Assembly (NCBI GenBank): GCA_052327205.1
Contig: CM126204.1
Coordinates: 327,918,001 to 327,982,000 of the forward strand
Direction: 5' to 3'
Source of the DNA: Somniosus microcephalus
Lineage: Eukaryota
DNA: 64,000 nt
Part shown: positions 3,631-63,822 of the stretch, piece after piece
Position numbering within the stretch: the first letter of the stretch is position 1
How the letters are laid out: each line of letters begins with the position of its first letter
The notes under the pieces: generated by a model
What the model was told of the DNA's origin: nothing
The model's database searches: none
The model's input: only the letters and a program-made list of their open reading frames with translations
Made by a program: the position numbers and the translations under genes

Positions 3631-6600
3631 CTGTTGAAAGAAAAATAATCCATAAATTGTTCATTTTTGCTAAGCCAACAAATATGCTCCCCCACCTCCG
3701 ATTGATACCACTGATGCACGAATCTGGAGTAGTCTGTAACAGGTAGTCTATAAACAGGCTAAGGATTCATCTCCACAATGGCTGTATTATTTACCATGCA
3801 GGTTGAGCTCTCTTCACTGGAGTTAGATGTGATAGCTCATGGACTATTTGTTGCATGCTCAACCAATGGGCTAAAAGTTCAAAACCCATTCTTGACTAGC
3901 ATTCAAAGCCAACTTTGATGGTTCTTATCAAAGCCAGTAGATGGAGTGCTCCACTAAGTTTCATAAAGGACAAATCAAAGAGAAAAAATAATTACTCTTT
4001 TTAAAACACAGCATTATAAGTATTGCAAAAGTACAATAATATTGATCATTATAACACTATGTTTTTCACTTGAGAAGAAGCATCACAGAACCAATCTCTA
4101 CCCTCACTAGTGACAATGGATCCAAAATGCCTTGGGGGTTCTGCTGGTCTCCCAGCATAACTCTGGCAGGAACCCCACAGAAAATTATGTAAACCTGGTT
4201 GCACTGGGTCTCTGCCAACTCTGTGAGTCTCCTGGTTGCCTTGTATGTGGCAGATTGATGGTTAGGTGGTAGAGGAAGGGTGGGAACTCTCAGAGCTGGG
4301 AGTTCGCACTCCTCAAGCTCCAGTGGGACCTGGCATATCAGTGGAGGCTGGTACCTTGTGTGAGTGGAGGCGTACCAGCATCCACAAGGTGTATGTGGGC
4401 TCCACCATAGGTCCCAGGTCAGGCAAGCACCCTGGAACACTGAAGACCGTGATTTTTAAAACATTTTTTATAGATAAACCTCTTTGCTCAGGGGGATGTG
4501 GGGATGATGGCTGGGGTCGGGGTGTTGGGGGGGGGGGGCGCAGGGTGTGTCACTTGGAGACCCCCTGCCCCACAGATATGCAAGCGCTGAAGTTTTGGGC
4601 GGGCGTGGGCAATTTGACACTGGAGATGCAACCAAAATGGCACGAGCACCTGACTAGCCCAAGTAAATGAGGTGCTCTCCCACTAACCGCACCAAGGTCA
4701 GCGCTGCCGGAAGGCGCCATCAGACACGATCCTAGTGACCTGAGCAACTTCAGGCCAATGTATCACGCCTCCTCTGACTAGCCCTTGCCCTCATTCTATT
4801 AACCAAGGCATTTGAATTCTGTGACTAGCTCTCGCCCTCATGCTAACTATATTGCTAGTTTCGGAATACGTGGCCAGGTGTTACAAGTTCTGTGCCAAGT
4901 TTGTTCAAAGATTCTGCTAACGTTGCTTTTTGAACTTTTTTCAATATAACCAAGCAGATGTTATTTACAGAGGATGTCTCAATATCAAGGATCTCTTTTA
5001 ATGGGCATGTTTCACCATCAAGACCTTTTTAAAATCTTTTTTCTGTCTATCCTGTTGATTTTTATGTGGGATATTGCTATTTATACAGTGAATCAGTGAG
5101 AGGGTGGGTGTGTGTTGGAGGAGTTACAAAGTGAGACAGTATAAGGGAGAGGAATTATCGTTAACCTGGGAAACCTCTGAATTTTTTGTTTTGTCTGTTG
5201 TCATTTCAACGGCAGGTGTTAATTCATCACCTCCCCACTGTCAGGTCCAGCAGTTACTACAAGTCAATTCTGTTGATGATGTTATTCCAGTTACTGTTTG
5301 AGTAAAAATATCTGCTGCCCAAAAAAAACCCAACAAAAATAGGCATTGCAGAAAGAAACGTTACTGACAATCATAAATCTTTTTAACTGTTCAGTTTATA
5401 AAGGGGGCTACTGATGACAAGACTCCCTCTTTATAGAAGTGATAATATCTGTTTCAGTTACTGTGCAGGAAGATTTCCTCTGTCCACCACTTGTAGTGAA
5501 ATCAAAAACACATGTATGAAGAATGCATGTATAACTTTGGCTACAAACAGTAAACGAAGAAATCTCCCCCATGTCACCAAGTTCTTCTGATCGCTATGTG
5601 CTTCAGTTGCTCCACACTTCTAATGTTCGTCTTAGCGGAGAAGGCAACTCTACAGGTAACTTCTGTCAATAGCAACTGTTTACCCTGAAAGGAACCAGCC
5701 CGCAATCACTTTCTAAAGACACCGCTGTCATTGATACTGTCCAAAGTCTCATGTCACTCCACCACACCTGCCCCATCCTTCACAGCAAGAAGTGGACGAA
5801 TAAATAGGGGAACCCCATAAATACAAATATTTTTCAAAATGAAAATTTTGTGTTCTCATTGCTAATTCCCCTCCCCCCCCTCAAAATATTACAAAACACA
5901 TCGAGCTAGCCTAGGAGTAAGTACTTCCTATTGACGATACTTACCCATAGCGGTACCTTCTCCTTTAAGCTTATATCATTGCCAGATGCAGAGTAAAAGA
6001 CCATGTATTATCCCATTATGGAGGAACAAAGTGAGGGAAAGCCTGATCAGGCCGCGGTGCCCACTCGCATTTCTTAACTTTGTGCAGTGAGACATGACAA
6101 TTACTGGGGATCTCGCAAATGTCTTGATATTACTGGCGTGCGGTTTGTCCTGGGTCATTTTAAATTCCTGCAGGGAACGTGGGGAAGAGACCCTCTCCTC
6201 CTCTTCTGACTTGACGTCGTTGGGGTGGTTAATGAGATATGCTTGTCAGCTGAAGAACTGACTAAACTGTAATAAGAAGCAACCTGCATGTGAGTGAGAG
6301 GAACAGGCCCTTTAAGGAGGCTTTAAGAGGCCACCCTACCTGTGAGCTTTTCTGTCTGTAGGCTTTATGTTTAAGGAAATAGGGCAAATGGCTCCCTGGG
6401 GCATTATGCTATAGTTTAGTTTTACAGGGTGTTTATTCAACAATCAAGAAAATGAAATATACCAAAACCAAAAAATAATCTTAATGTTAACACCAATAAA
6501 ATATCAATGGGAATATTAGTATGCAAACGTATTAATACGCTTGTATGATTTTGGCCTATCCAGTATTTTACTGTCTCTGTTAAAATAGTGGACGGAGGAA

Positions 6601-30856: not shown

Positions 30857-31683
30857 AATCAAATCAAATCAAATCAACTTTTATTGTCATTGTTAGTGCA
30901 CAAGTGCAGTACAACGAAATGTAGGCTTGCGGCTCCCGAGAGTGTACAATTTGGATTAGGACACTTAACATTTCAACATACATTTGTACATATATATTAG
31001 CATAAATATGACCATAATAAAGTGCATTGGCAGATGTGCAGGCTTTAGAGTTTATTTGTGGAGTTCAGTAGGATGACAGCCCTGGGAAAGAAGCTGTTCC
31101 TAAATCTGGTCGTACGGGTGCGAATGCATCTGTAGCGTCTTCCAGATGGTAGGAGGGCGAACAGACTGTGGCTGGGGTGGGTAGGGTCTTTGATGATGGA
31201 CCGTGCCCTCCGTAGGCAGCGTTTCTGATATATATGTTCTATGGTCGGTAGCCGGGTGCCGGTAATGCGTTGGGCAGTTTTGACTACCCGCTGCAGGGCT
31301 TTCCGGTCATGGGAGCTACAGCTGCCGTACCATACCGTGATACAGTTTGTCAGGATGCTCTCTATAGTGCAGCGGTAGGAGTTAGAGAGGATCGGGGGTG
31401 ACAGATTACATCCCTTCAGCCTCCTCAAGAAATATAGGCGCTGCTGGGCCTTCTTCACCAGAGAGGAGGTGTTGAGGGACCAGGAGAGGTCTTCCGTGAT
31501 GTGGACTCTGAGGAACTTAAAGCTGGCCACCCTTTCCACTTCCGCCCCATTGATGTGGATGGGGGTGTGACTTCCGCCTTTGGACTTCCTGAAGTCCACG
31601 ATTATTTCCTTTGTTTTCTTGGTGTTAAGGGCCAGGTTGTTGTCGGCGCACCACTTCACGAGATGCTGGACCTCCTCCCTGTA
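30857..31683 (-). mobile_element. Second, more 5'-truncated Rex1/Babar LINE copy with (GATTT)n tail
   Basis: Near-identical to 31949-32755; 204-codon open frame. Confidence 0.9.
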
Positions 31684-31930
31684 CTGATAGGTTTAGATGA
31701 AGTAGGTTGGGAGGAGGCTCGTGTGGAGCATAAACACCAGCACAGACCAGTTGGGCTGAATAGCCTGTTTCTGTGCTGTAAATTCAATGTAAATCCAGTG
31801 CTGCTACAACAGCTGAAAGGGCTAAGGCAGCCATTGTTATTGGTAACTAGGTGGCTCACAAGTTCGTGTGGAGCATAAACACCAGCACGGACCTGTTGGG
31901 CCGAATGGCCTGTTTCTGTGCTGTAAATAC

Positions 31931-32902
31931 TAATCATAATCATAATCAACTTTATTGTCATTGTTAGTGCACAAGTGCAGTACAACGAAATGTAGGCTTG
32001 CGGCTCCCGAGAGTGTACATTTAGATTAAGACATTTAAACATTCAACATTCATTTGGCTTGTAATACATTAACATAAATATAACCATAATAAAGTGCACT
32101 GGCAGATGTACAGGCTTTAGAGTTTATTTGTGGAGTTCAGTAGGATGACAGCCCTGGGAAAGAAGCTGTTCCTAAATCTGGTCGTTCGGGTGCGAATGCA
32201 TCTGTAGCATCTCCCAGATGGCAGGAGGGCGAACAGACTGTGGCTGGGGTGGGTAGGGTCTTTGATGATGGTCCGTGACCTCCGTAAACAGCGTTTCTGG
32301 TATATGTGCTCTATGGTCGGTAGCCGGGTGCCGGTAATGCGTTGGGCAGTTTTGACTACCTGCTGCAGGGCTTTCCGGTCATAGTAGCTACAGCTGCCAT
32401 ACCATACTGTGATACAGTTCATCAGGATGCTCTCTATTGTGCAGCGGTAAAAGTTAGAGAGGATCAGGGGTGACAGGTTACATCCCTTCAGTCTCCTTAG
32501 GAAATATAGGCGCTGCTGGGCCTTCTTCACCAGAGAGGAGGTATTGAGGGACCAGGAGAGGTCTTCCGTGATGTGGACTCTGAGGAACTTAAAGCTGTCC
32601 ACCCTTTCCACCACAGCCCCATGGATGTGGATGGGGGTGTGACTTCCGCCTTTAGACTTCCTGAAGTCCACAATGATTTCTTTGGTTTTCTTGATGTTAA
32701 GGGCCAGGTTGTTATCGGCGCACCACTTCACGAGATGCTGGACCTCCTCCCTGTAGGTTGACTCATCGTTGTTGGTGATCTGGCCTACTACCGTGGTATC
32801 ATCCGCAAACTTGATGATGGTGTTGGAACCATGAACAGCCACACAGTCGTGGGTGAAGAGGGAGTAGAGGAGGGGGCTCAGCACACATCCTTGTGGGGCC
32901 CC
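31931..32902 (-). mobile_element. Rex1/Babar-type LINE, 3' part (RT C-terminus, 3'UTR, (GATTAT)n tail), split by the LTR element
   Basis: APQGCVLSPLLYSLFTHDC...KFADDTT...KTKEIIVDFRK...KKAQQRLYFLRRL; 255-codon open frame; microsatellite tail. Confidence 0.9.
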
Positions 32903-33158
32903 TGTAAAATCTGTGGGTTATATTGCAAATTATTACACAGACTACAAGAGTAAACTTTAACAGGACTTTACTATTCGAAGGTCAGGGCGAATCTGCCCAA
33001 TCACTCATTACACAGCACTTATATACCGGTGTGGTCACCACCGGTATTACAGTATACCGCAGCCAAGATAAGTAGTGCAACACCTAAAATAGTTCTCTTA
33101 AAGGTGGACGGTTACATACAATAGTTCTCTTAAAGGTAGAACAGTTACATACACTACA
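32903..33158 (-). repeat. 3' LTR
   Basis: Direct repeat of 37304-37559, preceded on the minus strand by the polypurine tract AAAAAGGGAGGAT (33159-33171). Confidence 0.95.
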
Positions 33159-33233
33159 ATCCTCCCTTTTTAGCTTACAACATACTTATTCCCCATTAAA
33201 CATAACATCATAACATATATCCAACTTCATGTA

Positions 33234-33349
33234 AAAACAGTTCACAGATGTAGTCTCTGCGGAAAACAGTTCACAGATTCAGTCTCTGCGGAAAACAGTT
33301 CACAGATTCAGTCTCTGTGGAAAACAGTTCACAGATTCAGTCTCTGTGG
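33234..33349. repeat. 29-bp tandem repeat x4 in the LTR element's 3' region
   Basis: Unit AAAACAGTTCACAGATTCAGTCTCTG(C/T)GG; reads PQRLNL-stop on the minus strand. Confidence 0.9.
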
Positions 33350-34038
33350 AGGCGCCTCCTGTGCTTCTTGACTCGGTCTGGACAACGCCTCGGTGGTGTA
33401 GCAGTTCCCTGTGGTGTAGTCGGTTCACTTTGCTGGGGTGACTCATCCAATAGTCCTTCACTGGACTTAACAGCTTGAACTTCCGTCACTTCTGAACCAG
33501 CATTGCTGACTTCTAAAAGCTTGAGTACCTTGGGAAGTTTTTCTACTTCCAAACTGATTTGGTTCCGTTCGGAGGGACCATGTGCGTGATCTGGTAGGGG
33601 TGATAATGGTTCAGATGGGTCATCTTCTTCTGTTTCGTCTTTTCCTTTCCTGCTTCTTGGAGACTCTCTGTGCTCCGCTGCCAGCCGCATGCACAGTTCC
33701 TCCTCCTCTTTCTCCTCTTGCCTTAGCAGCGCCACCATCTCCCGGTGTTTCTTAGACTTTTTGTGATTCTTCAGGGTTTTTGCACTTCGGAAGATTTCCC
33801 CACAAGCTGGGCAGAACAGGTCATCGTTATATTCGGTGTCGTTCAACAGGACGTGGTAATAATCGGTGTCGTCCTGAGCTAGGCCAGCGAGAGGGTCTTT
33901 TATTTCCTCCATGCCCAGCTGGACGTTAGTCAGCTTTTGTTCCAATTCCAGACATCTCTCCTGAAGAGACTTCTTCATGTGTTCAGCTTCCTCCAGCTTT
34001 TTCTGGGCTTCCTGCAAGTCTCTTACTAATGACCTCAT
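33337..34038 (-). CDS. In-frame continuation after a single TGA: rest of the optineurin-like coiled coil, a DNAJC21-like C2H2 finger and a remnant pol tail
   Basis: [23 protein letters not shown] continues the OPTN alignment. [34 protein letters not shown] matches the recalled DNAJC21 zinc finger. Confidence 0.8.
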
Positions 34039-35553
34039 TCATGATTTCAATACTTCAACTTCATTCGGAGATTGATTGATCGTATTATTCAATCCCTCTA
34101 CTGGAGCAGTTGTTTCAGCATTCTGTTGTTCAACATTGACGTGAGTCAGCGTACTTTTGGCATCCAAGGGTTGCTCTGCTGCCATCTTCTCAGTCTGTGT
34201 TGCAACCTCAGCTATTTCAATAACTTTTGAGCGCTCCAACCCCCTCTCCTTTGAAGATTTAAGCTCATGTTCAAATTGTTCCCATTTCAGAGTCTTGTCC
34301 CTCAGCATATGAAGGAGTTGGCTGACCGTTAACTCTTCTGACATCATCCGTTTCCCAGTAGCTGCAGGGATGTTTATAACCTTGCCCTGGGGCTCCTTTG
34401 CTGTTTCTACTTCGCCATCATCCGCAGCCTCCACCATTCGAATTTCCACAAATGAATCGTCCGGTGATGCTGCACCCAACTTCAGTAGGAGCTCGGAATT
34501 CATGGCGACCAAATCAGCCTTTTCTGCCTGCAACCTGCTAACAAGCGCCTTCAGTTGCTGAACATCTTGCTCCACCAGATTAGCGCACGCACCTTCAGAA
34601 ACCGAATCAGCTTTGATTCGTTTGGCCTCCTCGCGCAGACGGTTTGTGTGCTCCTGCTCCCTTTTCTCCATCAGCTGCTTCTGTTGTCTTTCCAGATTCT
34701 CCCACTCTGTGTCAAAGAACGTTTTCATTGCTTTCATCTCTTGCTCAAGACGGCAACTCAATTGTTCTAATTGCTGTTGTAATTTGAAATGGAGTTGAGT
34801 TCGAGCCCGGTGTTCCTCAGAATTGTGCATGTCTGTAAACTGGACAGACTCAGAATTCTCTGTCAAACTATGTTGTTGTTGTTCAGTGGAATTCTGTTCT
34901 GAAACTTTGTTCTCCTCTGAAGCATAAGCATTTATGCGCTCCTTCGTTTTTCCAACCTTAGTCAGCAAGTCCATTTTAGACTTGTCTTTCGCACCTGGGC
35001 TGGTCTTATCGTCATCAGTTTCAGAGTCTGAGCTGATTGTCTTCACCGAGTTCTCACTCGTTATTGCTTTTAGGTAGTGCCATTCCATGTTTATTTCCCT
35101 GATCCACTCCCGTCCCAGAAGTGGTGGACCTCCCTCAGGTAGTACATATAAGTCCATTCCTTGGTGTTCTTTGCCCTTGTCTCTCACCTTGACTTTTATC
35201 TTTCCGATGGGGTATACTTTATGCCCCGTGTATGTCTGCAATACGATCTTTGTATCTCTCAAGGGTATATGTGAGAATAGCTGGTTGTAATCCCTTCGAT
35301 TTATGACTGATAGGGCTGATCCTGTGTCCAATTCCATTTTTACTTGGACTCTGGCTATTTTTAGCATGACCCAGATAGTTTGTAGGTCAGCTTCCTTACT
35401 CACATTGTGAATTCTCAGACTACCCAGTTCCTGGCCGTTTGGGTCTGAATCCGAATTCTGTTCATCCGAACTCTTCTCAGCCACCTTGTGTACCTTGCTG
35501 TACTTTTCCTGCGGTGACTTTTTTTGTTGCTGGTCTTCTTTCCTGACCGGCAT
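34039..35553 (-). CDS. Aspartic protease ([12 protein letters not shown]...LLGREW) fused in frame to an SLK/STK10-like coiled coil and an optineurin-like segment
   Basis: Catalytic DTG at 35320-35328. [16 protein letters not shown] and RLQAEKADL...DSFVEIRM...EELTVSQLL were recognised from recalled SLK/STK10 and OPTN sequences. Confidence 0.85.
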
Positions 35554-36221
35554 ACTTTAGCTATGTGACCAAGCTTGCCACATTTTCTACATTCCTGGTT
35601 TTTAAACCAGCATTGGTTCTGGTCGTGTGTTGTCTTCCCACAACGATAACATTTCATTGTACCCGAAGTCATTTGATCCACGCTGAGTACCGCTGCCTTC
35701 AGCTGCATTTCTGCAGTGCCTCTCGCTGCGGCTTCGTGCGATGCTGCAATAAGGACAGCCTTATCAAGTGTAAGATCGTTCTCTTCTAACAGTCGCTTTT
35801 GTGTTCCTTCCTTCGACAACCCGCACATGAACTTGTCTCTCAATGCCTCTGTCAGATTTTCCCCAAACTGACAGTATTTCGCTAATCTACGCAGTTCAAC
35901 CAAGTATTCCGCATTGCTTTCCTCTTTCCGTTGCGTTCTCGCATAAAATTTGAATCGTTCCGCCAACATCAGCGGTGTGGGGTTCAAATGATCCTTCAGG
36001 ACAGCAACAATATTAGCGAAAGTCTGATCTGCCGGTTTAGCTGGTGATAGAAGACGCTTCAATAGCCTGTATGTCTTCGCCCCCATTGAGTTTAGTAAGG
36101 TTAGAGCTTTATCATCATCTGCTATTTTATTGGCCTCACAATATATCTCGATGCGTTCTACATACGTGGCCCAATCTTCCACCTCGGAATCGAAGTCTTT
36201 GATGTTACCATGCTTAGGCAT
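35415..36221 (-). CDS. gag: Gag of Mag-type Gypsy element
   Basis: ATG at 36221 (MPKHG...). [21 protein letters not shown] and LRDKFMCGL are Mag-like motifs. Two CX2CX4HX4C knuckles lie at 35550-35651. Confidence 0.9.
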
Positions 36222-37292
36222 CTTCACTATCTTTCTGAGAAACAACAACGAATTTGTTCGTTACTTTTTTTTTCCAAAAATGGCGGTTTCTCGCGCTTGT
36301 CTTCTTCCCCGCCCACTTTCAAAATGGCGGTTTCCCACTCCTGTCTTCTTCCCCGCCTACTGGCGGCTTCCCGCGTTTCTTCCCCTGGCAGGAGGGGTAA
36401 GCTTTGCTCTCGGGCGACGACCGCTGGCTTTCGGGGTTCGCAGCCTGCGCGCCGGCTTCAGTGCGTTCTTTGTTCCCTTTTCTTGGCAGGGCAACCGGCG
36501 CTGGGGACAACCCTTTGGCGGCGAACAGTTCCAGCCGCTGGGCGGAATCTCGCTCGGTCTCCCTCGCTCGGTCCCGTTCCCCCTCGCTCGGGCTCTGTCT
36601 CTCCCGCTCGCTCAGGCTCTGTCTCTCCCTCAGCGGCTTCCAATCGCGCCTCCCGGCCCTCTCGCAGTCTGGTCCTTTCCTCCCCCGGCTGCGGCTGAGT
36701 TCTCCGCGGTTTTATTTATTTATTATTATTATTTTTTTTATTTCTTCTCGCGCCTTACGATCCCGGTCGCAGCGCCTCGCGGCCTCGGTAGCTGCCCGGC
36801 CTTTTTCGCCGGTCGCGGTCGAGCTGTCTCACGACGCTGTTGCGTCTCCCAGCCCGCTTGTAGCCCGGTCTCTCACACCAGCTGCATTCCCGCTTGTAGC
36901 CTGGTCTCTCACACCGGCTGCGTTCCCGCTTGTACCGCGGCTTCCGTGCCCTACGCTGCCCCAGTCTCAGTGTCTCTGGCCCCGACTTCTGTCCGGCTCC
37001 TTTCCCCAGACCGTGGTCGAGTTCACCGCCCTTATCCTCCGTTTCTTTTTATTTCCCCCCTACTCACAGTCAACGTGGCCGACTTGCTTCTCGTGGCTGA
37101 TCGGCTCACTCACCACCGTGACAGAAGGGACGATCACTGCCTGTTGCTGATGGAAGGCTTCATGTCTGAATTCTTCCTTCTTCCTTGCTCTGCAGACTCG
37201 AGTCTTCTCTCAGCAGAACGACGAGGGCGGATGCCTCTTCTCGACGCTCGTTAACTGCTTCGGATGTATCGCTGCCGCAGGGTAAGAGCGAA

Positions 37293-37302
37293 CTCGTCGC
37301 CA
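37293..37302 (-). promoter_or_regulatory. Primer-binding site TGGCGACGAG, complementary to the tRNA-Ser(GCT) 3' end
   Basis: Lies 1 nt inside the 5' LTR. It matches the recalled ...CTCGTCGCCA end of vertebrate tRNA-Ser(GCT). Confidence 0.8.
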
Positions 37303-37303
37303 C

Positions 37304-37559
37304 TGTAAAATCTGTGGGTTATATTGCAAATTATTACACAGACTACAAGAGTAAACTTTAACAGGACTTTACTATTCGAAGGTCAGGGCGAATCTGCCCA
37401 ATCACTCATTACACAGCACTTATATACCGGTGTGGTCACCACCGGTATTACAGTATACCGCAGCCAAGGTAAGTAGTGCAACACCTAAAATAGTTCTCTT
37501 AAAGGTGGACGGTTACATACAATAGTTCTCTTAAAGGTAGAACAGTTACATACACTACA
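37304..37559 (-). repeat. 5' LTR
   Basis: TGTAAAATC...CACTACA; identical to 32903-33158 apart from one mismatch I could find (AAGGTAAGT vs AAGATAAGT). TATATAA and AGTAAA are present on the minus strand. Confidence 0.95.
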
Positions 37560-37564
37560 GCCCC

Positions 37565-57298: not shown

Positions 57299-57829
57299 CT
57301 ATGGATAAAAGACAAAAGCAGCGTCAGACCAGGGGCTTATTGGGAGAAGGGAAGGGAAAAGCGAAAAAAGGAAGAGAAAAAAGCTGAAGGATAGAGTGGC
57401 TACAGAGAGCGAGAGAGGGGCAAAGGACATGGAGACGTAGGAAGGGGAAGGACGGGAAGTGGGGGAAAAAGAGAGCTGAGATGGATGCAGAGAGAGGAAA
57501 CAAATAAGGAAAGGAAAAGGGGAAGGATGGGGAGAGGGAAAGAGAGAGAGAAAGGGGAGAGAGAAAAATGATGATGAGGTTAATTGAAGGGAGAGTTGTA
57601 ATGTAAGAGTGAAAGGGAGAGAGAGAGAGACAAGGTGAAGAAGGATAGTGGGAGAGGGAAAAGGGAGACAAGAGAAGAGGGAGGACTGGGAAAGGGAGAT
57701 CAAGGGTATTGAGGGAGTGACTGAAAGAGAAAAGAGAACATGGGCAAGGAGCTAGGACAGAAAGTGAGACCATGGAAAGCAGAGAGAGCAAAGAGAAGGG
57801 GGGGAGAGATACAGGAAAAAGAGGGGAAA

Positions 57830-58023
57830 TGGCAAAGGTAAAGAGGGAGACGGCAAAGGTAAAGAGGGAGACGGCAAAGGTAAAGAGGGAGACGGCAAAG
57901 GTAAAGAGGGGAAATGGCAAAGGTAAAGAGGGAGACGGCAAAGGTAAAGAGGGAGACGGCAAAGGTAAAGAGGGAGACGGCAAAGGTAAAGAGGGAGACG
58001 GCAAAGGTAAAGAGGGAGATGGC
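57830..58023. repeat. 21-bp minisatellite, about 9 copies
   Basis: Unit GGCAAAGGTAAAGAGGGAGAC. Confidence 0.92.
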
Positions 58024-58095
58024 ATGGAATCAGATAGAGAATAAAGAGAGGGAAAGGAACAGAAAATGATTGAGCAAGAAAAGAAAAGAGCAGTC

Positions 58096-59514
58096 AGAAC
58101 AGGTACAGAACAAGGAAAGAACAGGCACAGAACAAGGAAAGAACAGGCACAGAACAAGGAAAGAACAGGCACAGAACAAGGAAAGAACAGACAAAGAACA
58201 AGGAAAGAACAGACAAAGAACAAGGAAAGAACAGGCACAGAACAAGGAAAGAACAGGCACAGAACAAGGAAAGAACAGGCACAGAACAAGGAAAGAACAG
58301 GCAAAGAACAAGAACAGGCACAGAACAAGGGAAGAACAGGCACAGAACAAGGGAAGAACAGGCACAGAACAAGGAAAGAACAGGCAAAGAACAAGGAAAG
58401 AACAGGCACAGAACAAGGAAAGAACAGGCACAGAACAAGGAAAGAACAGGCACAGAACAAGGAAAGAACAGGCACAGAACAAGGAAAGAACAGGCACAGA
58501 ACAAGGAAAGAACAGGCACAGAACAAGGAAAGAACAGGCACAGAACAAGGAAAGAACAGGCACAGAACAAGGAAAGAACAGACAAAGAACAAGGAAAGAA
58601 CAAAGAACAAGGAAAGAACAGGCACAGAACAAGGAAAGAACAGGCACAGAACAAGGAAAGAACAGGCAAAGAACAAGGAAAGAACAGGCAAAGAACAGGC
58701 AAAGAACAAGAACAGGCACAGAACAAGGGAAGAACAGGCACAGAACAAGGAAAGAACAGGCACAGAACAAGGAAAGAACAGGCACAGAACAAGGAAAGAA
58801 CAGGCACAGAACAAGGAAAGAACAGGCACAGAACAAGGAAAGAACAGGCACAGAACAAGGAAAGAACAGGCACAGAACAAGGAAAGAACAGGCAAAGAAC
58901 AAGGAAAGAACAGGCACAGAACAAGGAAAGAACAGGCACAGAACAAGGAAAGAACAGGCAAAGAACAAGGAAAGAACAGGCACAGAACAAGGAAAGAACA
59001 GGCAAAGAACAAGGAAAGAACAGGCACAGAACAAGGAAAGAACAGGCACAGAACAAGGAAAGAACAGGCACAGAACAAGGAAAGAACAGGCACAGAACAA
59101 GGAAAGAACAGGCACAGAACAAGGAAAGAACAGGCACAGAACAAGGAAAGAACAGGCAAAGAACAAGGAAAGAACAGGCAAAGAACAAGGAAAGAACAGG
59201 CACAGAACAAGGAAAGAACAGGCACAGAACAAGGAAAGAACAGGCACAGAACAAGGAAAGAACAGGCACAGAACAAGGAAAGAACAGGCAAAGAACAAGG
59301 AAAGAACAGGCAAAGAACAAGGAAAGAACAGGCAAAGAACAGGCAAAGAACAAGGAAAGAACAGGCAAAGAACAGGCAAAGAACAGGCAAAGAACAAGGA
59401 AAGAACAAGGAAAGAACAGGCAAAGAACAAGGAAAGAACAGGCAAAGAACAAGGAAAGAACAAGGAAAGAACAGGCAAAGAACAAGGAAAGAACAGGCAA
59501 AGAACAAGGAAAGA
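58096..59514. repeat. Purine-rich 22-bp (2 x 11-bp) minisatellite, about 1.4 kb, in ptch2 intron 1
   Basis: Unit AGAACAAGGAA-AGAACAGGCA(C/A); essentially no T on the plus strand. Confidence 0.97.
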
Positions 59515-60982
59515 AAGCATCAGGGAGAATAACTGACAAGTAAAGAATGAGAGAAAACAATGTTAAGAGAAAAAAGATATAAAATGCCAGTGGCACTTAT
59601 ATAGTAGACACTGGAGAGAAAAATAACTTGATTCAGTACATTCACGCCACGCTCCCCGTATGCCTCTTGTATTCCTGGTTTCCTTTTTCATTTCTTCCCT
59701 CCATAATTCATTATTTCATTCTGCTGTTCTTTCCCGTCTCCTTCAGTGCTTCCCCATGCACTCTTTTTTCCATATCCTTTCAATACTCCCATTTCCTCAC
59801 ATTCCTTAATTCTCTTTCATCCCTCTTCTCCCTTCACTACTTTACCCTTCTTTCTTTCTCTCTGATGTCATATCTTCGCAGTTTTAGTCAGTATTTATTT
59901 TTCAGAGTTTGATTCACTTATCACTTTTCTCTAACTTTTATGTTATGCTTGTTTTCGCCTTCTGTTCCCCCCCCCTCTCTCCCTCACCCCCCCTCTCTCC
60001 CTCACCTCCCCATTCCCCTCTCACTTGCTTCTGCCCGTCAGTCCTTTCATTCCTATTGCCATGCTGTCTTTTGCTCCTGGACATTTTCTCATCCTTCCTC
60101 CTTTTGTCATCTTTGCCTCTCCTTCCGTCAACTCTCATCAAATGCTCATTGGCTGGATCCTCTCTCCCGCTTCAGAATTGTCAATATATTCTCACTCTGC
60201 AGGCTAATCTCCTTACCGCCTCTCCCTCCTTCTCTCCCCATTTCCAGTGAGAAATTGCTCTCCTCCCACCACGGATTGTTATACATTTCCCCGAGTAACA
60301 GCCTCCATTTAGTTCAATCAAAAATCCTGACACTCTTCCAAGGTTTCCTCAAGTTCAGCGATCACTGTGCCAGATTTAAAAAAAGAGCTGCCTGGACCCA
60401 CAACATCGTAATATCCAGGTCAGTTACACACAAGGACACTCACAGGCTGGGGGGTATACAGAGGCACATGCACACCTGTGCACACTTTCTCACACATACA
60501 CACTCGCTCTGTGCACACACACACATACAGAGGTGCACACACACACACACACACAGAGTGCGTGGACTAAACACACCCCACTCACTCATAAACCCCAGGC
60601 ACCGTCTTCACCAACATCTGCATTAACTGTTATCCGGAGACACGCTCAGTCAATAAACCTATCCCCCCATCGCCTCTGGAGGGAAAGCAGTTTCTGAAAA
60701 TATTGACAACTTTTCCTACAGTTACTTTCAAAACATCCAACCACACTTCCTTTGGCTGGGAGACGTGCAGTTTCTTAATAAGAGAACAAATCTTACATTA
60801 AACACGCGCCTGAATCAGCAGCGGTCCGAGCTCGATATTACTCTTATTAATAAGAGCAGTAACAAACAAAAAAAACTTCACCAAGGAGCCCTGCCGACCT
60901 CCCGGCGTGATTAATGCATTATTACAGGCTTCCTATTGCAAGGGAGAAACTTAACAATCATAATATTCTCTTTTTTTTGCAC

Positions 60983-63429: not shown

Positions 63430-63822
63430 ATGATGTGGAGATGCCGGTGTTGGACTGGGGTGGACAAATGTGAGAAGTCACACAGCACCAGGTTATAGTC
63501 CAACAGCTTTATTTGAAATCACAAGATTTCGGAGCGCTGCTCCTTCGTCAGCTTGTGATTTCAAATAAAGCTGTTGGACTATAACCTGGTGTTGTGCGAC
63601 TTCTCACATTTGTCCACCCCAGTCCAACACCGGCATCTCCACATCATGGCTACTATCGCCACCACAAACTGCCGGCTCAAAGTGGAGAGGATCTCCAAGA
63701 AGATCGCGCATATCGACACAGACAGTTTCTACACTTCACCTGACGAAGGAGCAACGCTCCGAAAGCTTGTGATTTCAAATAAAGCTGTTGGACTATAACC
63801 TGGTGTTGTGTGACTTCTCACA
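63430..63822 (+). mobile_element. Internally deleted Penelope-like element (inverted plus direct pseudo-LTRs)
   Basis: 63430-63525 is the reverse complement of 63552-63647, and a direct repeat lies at 63766-63822. There is a stub ORF MATIATTNCRLKVERISKKIAHIDTD, and the flanks read AATGTATTTATG / AATATATTTATG. Confidence 0.8.
63736..63772 (+). ncRNA. Minimal type-I hammerhead ribozyme motif
   Basis: TCAC-CTGACGA-A-GGAGC-AAC-GCTCC-GAAA-GC-TT-GTGA: both catalytic boxes, stems I and II, and a palindromic AAGCTT stem III. Confidence 0.7.

Follow-up and report, generated by a model that had tools for sequence, protein, structure and literature searches.

The element described here lies on the reverse strand of a 64,000-nucleotide stretch of the genome of Somniosus microcephalus (contig CM126204.1), referred to below as the window. 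It occupies positions 32903..37559 and is a broken member of a Gypsy-type family of LTR retrotransposons that is not autonomous. Its features are given in the direction of the element.

37560..37564, no strand: target-site duplication GCCCC, 5 bp, 5' side of the element
37304..37559, minus: 5' LTR, 256 bp, TG...CA
37293..37302, minus: primer-binding site TGGCGACGAG, 10 letters identical to the parent copy
36222..37292, minus: long 5' leader, indel-rich across copies
35550..36221, minus: gag with two CCHC knuckles, under purifying selection between subfamilies
35519..35550, minus: frameshift of the window copy in the gag/protease interval, at a single-base run, common to 1 of 27 other copies
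35059..35364, minus: aspartic protease, LDTGS at 35317-35331
34816..35058, minus: STK10 residues ~400-478 (sawshark numbering), 80% identical
34609..34815, minus: STK10 residues ~616-686, the first part of the PKK coiled coil
33898..34608, minus: optineurin residues ~131-385, spliced, FVEI at 34441-34452
34039..34041, minus: stop codon of the window copy, inside the optineurin block
33637..33897, minus: DNAJC21-derived C2H2 zinc finger block, probably the latest addition (limits approximate)
33442..33636, minus: STK10 residues ~316-388, whose last codons are those that open the first STK10 block in less deleted subfamilies
33340..33441, minus: pol tail of the parent, 84% identical in nucleotides over 64 bp to a parent copy, last ~8 codons in a shifted frame
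33205..33349, no strand: tandem array of four 29-bp units where the 3' UTR begins
33159..33172, minus: polypurine tract
32903..33158, minus: 3' LTR, 256 bp
32898..32902, no strand: target-site duplication GCCCC, 5 bp, 3' side of the element

A sequence-only reading of this DNA had described intact LTRs, target-site duplication, primer-binding site and polypurine tract, and each was confirmed in the letters, including the single mismatch between the LTRs over 256 bp. The insertion target is a LINE RT fragment, and reads of the flanking repeat give the empty site, joining 32897 to 37560 with five shared letters. The primer is presumably tRNA-Ser; no tRNA genes were found in the 64-kb window. Zinc knuckles and LDTGS likewise bear out the reported gag and DTG protease. 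As that reading had also noted, RT, RNase H and integrase are missing, with no similarity in the window element at E<=1. Neither this element nor its sister element L046 has an env-like ORF or an env family match. The window copy holds ORFs of 504 aa and 233 aa, and the last ~34 codons of its ORF are the parent's pol tail.

About 1.7 kb of coding sequence had been described as running in the protease frame. The window copy is not one open frame and carries both the frameshift near 35519-35550 and the stop at 34039-34041. Of 28 close copies, 12 have a single open frame of 961 aa running through gag, protease and cargo, and 16 are broken. A programmed gag/protease frameshift or read-through stop was rejected, both breaks being missing from most copies; at 34041 the RNA reads depart from the window's letter in 481 of 481 and 292 of 293 cases. 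Every one of the 28 scored matches spans the full length, at 97-100% identity and on many contigs, and 22 of the 28 copies have their own 5-bp target duplication. The average difference within an LTR pair is 0.9%, and the closest two of the 28 copies are at least 42 differences apart, so recent transposition, as originally suggested, stands only in a relative sense. Indels among 27 copies number 0 in the 1,718 nt of cargo versus 34 events in the 1,082 nt of leader. The sole shared frame change sits in the last ~8 codons. Subfamily B copies were gathered with a protein query, which favours open frames. Shared stops as proof that stop-bearing masters had spread were also considered and dropped, as the four copies broken at codon 535 do not form a clade.

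The cargo consists of four blocks, not the three first recognized, since STK10 residues ~316-388 come after DNAJC21. The PKK match was recovered (PF12474, E = 1e-13), as were the central region of optineurin (71% identity to a sawshark protein, E = 2e-62) and the zinc finger of DNAJC21 type (61% to an avian protein called DJC21, E = 4.5e-9). The PKK coiled coil had been assigned to SLK/STK10; its donor is STK10, whose best shark matches reach 76-93%, and SLK was ruled out at about 69%. STK10 occurs twice, in permuted order, flanking optineurin and DNAJC21. The STK10 kinase domain and the optineurin UBAN and zinc finger exons are absent. The proposed lack of introns is supported at one optineurin exon boundary and one STK10 acceptor. 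The host DNAJC21 gene was not singled out among 107 and 139 scored matches. No annotated full chimera was found, and among the best 150 profile matches only a Mustelus optineurin fits the cargo; Gag and host domains were not joined in one protein in the 120 listed of 596 matches or in 85 of 85 STK10-type matches.

The family is made up of nested subfamilies. A back-splice-type STK10 joint occurs at 919 sites, the optineurin junction at 3,764 and the DNAJC21 junction at 378, so that the copy count once called for comes to thousands of sites. Sense-strand RNA, counted at the level of the family, is abundant in two runs; a third run, from another organism, gave 14 short low-depth pieces only and was left out of the counts. 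The 15 read joints listed of 82 include two well-supported ones, of 291 nt and 231 nt, with 350+214 and 65+66 reads across the two runs; both delete the optineurin zipper/LIR block in frame. The RNA reads support transcription of the family, with the LIR block deleted in expressed variants. All four listed joints inside the ORF are multiples of 3, but so are 3 of 4 large leader joints, and this control does not discriminate.

Selection differs between the two parts of the frame. Gag-protease has a dN/dS of about 0.23 (protease 0.26-0.29) and is under purifying selection, a signal that may partly come from helpers by recombination. The cargo is not detectably constrained, though its frame is kept: dN/dS is 0.77-0.92, with wide confidence intervals (0.47-1.59) that include 1 and limited power, and the PKK block reaches 1.06-1.33. 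Between subfamilies, 45 synonymous and 30 nonsynonymous changes in gag-protease compare with 22 and 52 in the cargo (Fisher P 0.0003). Spread would need a frame open to the 3' end, with cargo residues drifting almost freely. The cargo may be a translated spacer that holds the stop near the 3' LTR, avoiding nonsense-mediated decay, while the element makes its own Gag-protease. This is the most likely reason for frame keeping, by a modest measure on balance.

Could the element instead benefit from its cargo protein? Autophagy or trafficking would then be the target of the optineurin leucine zipper/LIR or of the coiled coils, or these parts would stand in for RT/integrase by dimerising Gag-protease, and the conserved protease may release them. 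Optineurin copies do outnumber back-splice copies (3,764 versus 919), the family is transcribed, and coiled coils tolerate substitution. A 60-codon zipper/LIR block has 0 nonsynonymous and 3 synonymous changes between subfamilies (P about 0.02-0.03, in a window chosen post hoc), and FVEI, which we take to be LIR-like, is kept in 27 of the 28 copies printed (1 of 29 was unparsed). Against these points stand the cargo and PKK ratios given above, the two supported joints that delete this same block in frame, a founding subfamily that has no optineurin, and the uncaptured UBAN and zinc-finger exons. We regard this alternative as unlikely. It is similarly doubtful that the chimera is translated and aids the element through protease dimerisation or by steering or evading autophagy, with the optineurin and DNAJC21 swaps as improvements that led to thousands of helper-dependent copies; if true, it would amount to an evolving cargo slot in a selfish element. 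A working autophagy/signalling chimera, as in the sequence-only reading, is not supported, as cargo dN/dS is indistinguishable from 1, the kinase, UBAN and zinc finger are absent, and the LIR is deleted in expressed variants.

The permuted order of STK10 around optineurin and DNAJC21 is explained by a simpler subfamily with STK10 as its only cargo, which carries a non-colinear exon-exon junction at splice sites. At 919 sites the end of a downstream exon is joined to the start of an upstream exon. In L050, STK10 residues 425-704 (264 of 281 identical to the sawshark protein) run directly into residues 291-388 (92 of 98). Residue 704 is an exon end, since isoform pairs insert a cassette exon exactly there, a boundary read from the isoforms of other sharks and not from S. 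microcephalus DNA. An exon begins at residue 291, where the host locus (C8:167,198,415) shows a pyrimidine tract and CAG just upstream. Besides the host locus, 919 sites match at 291, and all 99 listed have the downstream-exon end in place of these. The protease motif is joined to undeleted STK10 at 72 sites, that of L050 included, and 9 of 9 such sites on C1 coincide with back-splice sites. All STK10 blocks seen fall within 291-704; in a strict first look at 92 scored matches to STK10 residues 1-475, long copy-type matches begin at 329 or later. The blocks meet at 386-389 on both ends, so that entry and exit share the same codons, as expected if reverse transcription went once around a circle of 414 codons. 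The founding cargo was very probably a back-spliced STK10 circular RNA of residues 291-704, as read from the genomic copies. In the window's subfamily the back-splice junction is lost and the permuted order alone is kept.

STK10 could also have been permuted through a linear template: an mRNA with trans-spliced or repeated exons, a tandem duplication in the genome, or a single mRNA copied twice through template switches. Non-colinear junctions can arise in other ways, as Dong et al. (2016; PMC4897178) warn, and either side of the joint ends in AG, giving a match of 2 nt. The joint nevertheless coincides exactly with the end of one exon and the start of another, and a linear template would leave the shared codons of entry and exit unexplained; one host acceptor site was found, not two (<=1 mismatch). 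We find such a template rather improbable. One particular version, in which the same linear STK10 mRNA served twice during one capture that also took up optineurin, was given up once the STK10-only subfamily appeared.

The order of capture can be read from simpler subfamilies; in all likelihood it ran from the STK10 circle to optineurin and then to DNAJC21. Subfamily B matches a host optineurin exon (L049, 544-735, cag/gtaagt) at 96.4% identity and continues into the preceding optineurin exon. The 7-nt GCAGAGG is common to both sides of the optineurin-to-STK10 joint, and GATGAGG is common with the parent at the protease-to-STK10 joint, where the host side is inferred from protein. Serial capture of spliced host mRNA by RT switching, with every junction kept in frame, had been put forward at the outset; the short shared sequences at the testable junctions support it, and all capture junctions are in frame. 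That account missed the back-spliced circle as the probable founder and the order legible in simpler subfamilies.

The replacement by host sequence of part of the internal ORF between two LTRs leaves the family without its own RT. An RT-bearing parent lineage occurs in the same genome, at 4,366 sites with the same 20-nt linker followed by RT, and the parent copy has the same 10-letter primer-binding site. These sites answer the search for an autonomous partner and agree with the idea of a trans-mobilised gag-pro element. A parent copy and subfamily B share 95.8% identity in gag-pro and 95% across 65 nt of tail; the parent and subfamily C elements were read in part, and the direct parent is seen at the RT start and integrase tail only. 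Similarity in gag-pro varies patchily from copy to copy, a pattern that recombination with helpers would produce. We infer that the family borrows RT and integrase from this lineage. L046 has the order PR-RT-RNase H-integrase and is 69% identical in gag-pro nucleotides, but it was rejected as the direct parent, being a sister family with a different LTR.

Two further readings of the copies fare worse. They might be retrogenes maintained by the host for extra optineurin or STK10 dosage; sense RNA is abundant, and passages of a shark genome preprint list single-exon OPTN copies among lineage-specific duplications (bioRxiv 10.1101/2024.09.09.611499). Private changes, however, are alike in cargo (97 nonsynonymous to 45 synonymous) and gag-pro (64:31), stops are scattered on a star-like tree, 16 of 28 copies are broken and only fragments of the genes are present, which makes host maintenance highly improbable. 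An assembly chimera or one-off pseudogene, as the two breaks of the window copy could suggest and as had been named as a possible refutation, is refuted by the full-length matches on many contigs with their own duplications, by junction motifs at 3,764 and 378 sites (reversed-pattern control 0), and by public runs of three organisms that contain 0.2-0.7 of the element's words.

The proposed explanation is a non-autonomous Gypsy-type family that keeps Gag and protease and would take RT and integrase from its parent. In a first step, the parent's RT would have jumped from the pol tail to the back-spliced STK10 circle (291-704), made exactly one turn and stalled at its entry point. It would then have returned to pol just before the RT domain, giving gag-pro-STK10(389-704 | 291-388)-tail. 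In a second step, spliced optineurin mRNA would have replaced the back-splice junction, with STK10 479-615 lost in frame. In a third, a DNAJC21 piece would have replaced the optineurin/STK10 joint and, with in-frame deletions, produced the window's subfamily. Taken as a whole, from circle capture through the optineurin and DNAJC21 additions to helper dependence and spacer cargo, this explanation is judged reasonably likely. The family would hold a direct genomic record of circular RNA retrotransposition, with a template switch in an LTR particle, one turn and a forced exit. Its serial exon shuffling would have intermediates kept in hundreds to thousands of copies, which allows the succession of steps to be measured, as well as how selection on the frame compares with that on the residues. 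The family also offers a natural experiment, on a large scale, into why open reading frames are retained by non-autonomous elements. For annotation, expansions of OPTN, STK10 and DNAJC21 in sharks may be transposon cargo, and STK10 back-splice reads could arise from genomic copies.

Acutely transforming retroviruses also fuse Gag to captured host sequence and depend on helpers. The shark family differs in having no env and no sign of selection on cargo function (dN/dS 0.77-0.92). TR-GAG elements, to our knowledge, keep Gag without pol and carry no host cargo.

The capture route is already known from LTR-mediated retroposition, Bs1 and circRNA pseudogenes. In maize Bs1, an LTR element, a chimeric ORF combines parts of three host genes, and re-mobilisation has taken place with shared switch points; it is a plant element of one to five copies, and the passages on it in PMC5131818 and PMC13317346 describe no circular template. 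The planarian giant Gypsy elements Burro/GYPSM1 are described as having thousands of copies and cellular regulatory domains in frame in the Gag polyprotein (PMC6431247). These planarian elements are giant and autonomous, and their old domains have no known donor, whereas the shark family is without pol and its donors are the host's own genes (96% in nucleotides at the one exon compared). The single-exon OPTN copies in the preprint are intronless, lie within 1 kb of LINE/LTR sequence and occur in one shark only among those compared; its passages on them treat them as gene duplications and leave Gag fusion, chimera, DNAJC21 and copy numbers unmentioned (bioRxiv 10.1101/2024.09.09.611499). In the circRNA pseudogene sections of Dong et al. 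(2016; PMC4897178), flanks are LTR-enriched, the mechanism is called mysterious, and 33 circRFWD2 copies are reported in mouse. The non-colinear exon junction, circle-resident exons only, lack of poly(A) and LTR association are shared; the shark circle differs in lying between pol sequences of a two-LTR element, as one turn, in frame, amplified and re-edited. In the literature searched, no match was found for an in-frame circle capture amplified thousands-fold. The closest framework is that of LTR-mediated retrocopies from fly to mouse, in which internal ORFs are replaced by partial spliced mRNA with microsimilarity at switch points (Tan et al., 2016; PMC5131818). Host sequence between LTRs, a partial intron-less copy, microsimilarity, and mobilisation with sense RNA are all found in the shark family. 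As described in parts of that study, multi-gene chimeras, sense co-transcription and secondary rounds as non-autonomous elements are common to both. The shark family differs in the back-splice junction of its first template, in-frame fusion of cargo to a kept Gag-protease, pol-tail closure, and thousands of copies in nested subfamilies.

The element lies within a LINE RT fragment (32117-32917, - strand) as follows:

32903-37559, - strand: LTR element with 256-bp LTRs, a 5-bp target duplication, a PBS, and a PPT

Its two 256-bp LTRs differ by 1 base, and its coding content consists of gag, an LDTGS protease, and approximately 1.7 kb of host-derived cargo. When the RT-RNase H-integrase region of a related autonomous element was used as query, no match was found in the element at E<=1. 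This copy is broken twice: its frame shifts near 35519-35550, and a stop codon lies at 34039-34041. The LINE fragment at the insertion site and a second one (31045-31692, also - strand) both have an ALKBH8_N-like C-terminal profile and have a 300-bp stretch in common that is 94% identical. The window also contains a 29-bp tandem array (428-871), a purine-rich tandem array of 21/22-bp and 11-bp units that opens several long spurious frames (57776-59600), and inverted repeats of 105 and 83 nt that are 94-96% complementary (63430-63822).

The element belongs to a large family. All 28 scored matches were full-length at 97-100% identity; a perfect 5-bp target duplication was found in 22 of them, and in 12 a single open frame of 961 aa spans gag through to the end. 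Genome-wide, the STK10-to-optineurin joint occurs at 3,764 sites and the optineurin-to-DNAJC21 joint at 378, with 0 for each reversed control (up to 1 mismatch). The 28 LTR pairs differ at 65 positions (~0.9%), and the tree of copies is star-like with pairwise differences of 42-133. Substitution rates in sharks are slow. The copies are young in relative terms. Some copies occur in pairs (L016/L029 at C28:6,678,638-6,685,561; C1:10,173,486 and 10,177,881; C34:15,114,493 and 15,118,824), and their spacing of ~4.3-4.4 kb is as would be expected of tandem elements with a common LTR. The small contigs C44, C45, C53, and C151 carry several equal-score matches with an 864-aa open frame, which may represent a segmental array or collapsed duplicates.

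The best-matching donors of the cargo are shark proteins. The optineurin block is 71% identical to shark optineurin, and the kinase-derived part reaches 93% with STK10 vs. ~69% with SLK. The zinc finger is 61% identical to a bird protein named DJC21 and also matches an unnamed catshark protein, itself 56% identical to the bird protein. In the 6.45-Gb host genome, the C-terminal exons of optineurin, which lie outside the captured cargo, were found at one locus (3 matches among the 150 scored of 176 candidates). Over the one exon compared, host optineurin is 96.4% identical to subfamily B (STK10 and optineurin cargo) across 194 nt. Where an intron interrupts the host gene, subfamily B continues into the preceding exon, and it departs from the optineurin exon inside a 7-nt stretch common to STK10.

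The arrangement of STK10 points to a circular template. Comparison of subfamily B (12 of the 67 scored loci) with sawshark STK10 gave the order pol, STK10 386-478 and 616-686, optineurin 131-428, STK10 308-388, and pol tail. The STK10 pieces come in the reverse of their normal order, and their limits coincide at residues 386-389. In the third subfamily, which lacks optineurin (one locus read, L050), STK10 425-704 runs directly into 291-388, each 94% identical. Residue 704 is an exon end, because isoforms of several sharks carry a cassette exon inserted there, and residue 291 is an exon start, because a pyrimidine tract and CAG precede it in the host gene. The host exon starting at 291 follows another STK10 exon of the same orientation at a distance of 20 kb. 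The residue-291 search returned 919 further sites, with the downstream-exon end at that place in 99 of 99 among the matches listed. The protease motif is linked to undeleted STK10 at 72 sites, including that of L050, and all nine such sites on contig C1 coincide with back-splice junctions. Together, these features bear the mark of a back-spliced circle of 414 codons, of which one turn was copied. Given the way RT and RNase H act, RT would stall on coming back to its entry point on the circle. By exact motifs, the undeleted turn is present at only 72 sites vs. 919 back-splice sites; therefore, the majority of STK10-only copies probably contain additional deletions or variants.

What the cargo replaced can be read from an RT-bearing parent lineage. 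The 20-nt linker of the cargo elements is followed by an RT motif at 4,366 sites. For one such copy, both ends were compared: in gag-pro it shares 95.8% identity with subfamily B and 88.8% with the window element, and its pol tail is 95% identical to subfamily B over 65 nt. Its LTR is ~77% identical; the LTR start, 10-nt PBS, and PPT core are identical. The cargo therefore occupies the place of pol between a point shortly ahead of RT and the integrase tail. Identity in gag-pro is uneven among copies: over a single 100-nt stretch, it is 71-74% to the parent copy for two cargo copies but 96-97% for two others, a pattern expected from exchange with helper lineages. A sister Gypsy family, L046, has an unbroken gag-PR-RT-RH-IN frame. 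It is a second large autonomous family (C13:54,481,900-54,487,950; 180-bp LTRs, long open frames, 102 scored matches).

Relative to B, the window's subfamily added DNAJC21 and carries in-frame changes of -31, +2, and -9 codons. Further DNAJC21-bearing copies (e.g., C7:126,902,290; C11:112,561,676) match residues 36-100 of the catshark protein at 63-69%, in frames up to ~1,200 aa; therefore, more DNAJC21 subfamilies with different joints probably exist. At the 3' end, L050 resembles autonomous pol. The optineurin-bearing subfamilies (L034; window 33340-33360) have an arginine-rich tail encoded in a shifted frame, which one might speculate to be a nuclear or RNA-binding signal.

Selection was compared between 21 window-type and 8 B copies staying in one frame, over the sequence outside the DNAJC21 block. 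Group differences in gag-pro were 45 synonymous and 30 nonsynonymous (dN/dS 0.23-0.27), vs. 22 and 52 in the cargo (dN/dS 0.77-0.92, interval 0.47-1.59; Fisher P 0.0003), and net pairwise estimates agreed. In gag-pro and cargo alike, private changes look neutral. The frame runs on across every capture junction. Among 27 copies, the cargo has 0 indels and gag-pro 2, against 34 events (~18 places, some in simple repeats) in the leader, which is shorter than the cargo. The four listed read joints inside the ORF measure 291, 231, 66, and 51 nt; however, lengths divisible by 3 also occur in three of the four leader joints listed, which counts against frame keeping. The reading frame is kept although cargo residues are barely constrained. 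No nonsynonymous change was found in the optineurin zipper/LIR block, but two of the read joints inside the ORF delete it. Most likely, the cargo is a translated spacer in a helper-dependent Gag-protease element. Such an element would supply its own Gag and protease and borrow RT and integrase, and the spacer may serve to avoid nonsense-mediated decay. A useful cargo protein is possible but unlikely.

For organism B, two RNA runs (X16 and X17; 24% and 31% read) yielded 38,010 and 32,763 aligned reads, counted from 88% likeness and mostly 90-95% alike. First-mate depth over the cargo in X16 was 180-1,165 on + vs. 13-58 on -; with the usual stranded library design, this is the element's sense strand. 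The bias in X17 was weak (~1.2- to 2.3-fold). Reads also cover the flanking LINE. The signal is family-level rather than specific to the window locus.

In the open literature, neither a description of the cargo family nor a circle captured in frame by an LTR element of high copy number was found; most subscription papers and repeat databases lie outside that scope. A shark preprint describes single-exon OPTN copies near LINEs or LTRs (bioRxiv 10.1101/2024.09.09.611499). The main text of a second does not mention OPTN, STK10, or DNAJC21; the supplements of both may list such copies. Pseudogenes derived from circular RNA are already known, with LTR-rich flanks and no mechanism given (PMC4897178). 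Cellular domains in frame are known from Burro elements (PMC6431247). The capture route here is that of LTR-mediated retroposition (PMC5131818) and also that of Bs1 (PMC5131818; PMC13317346).
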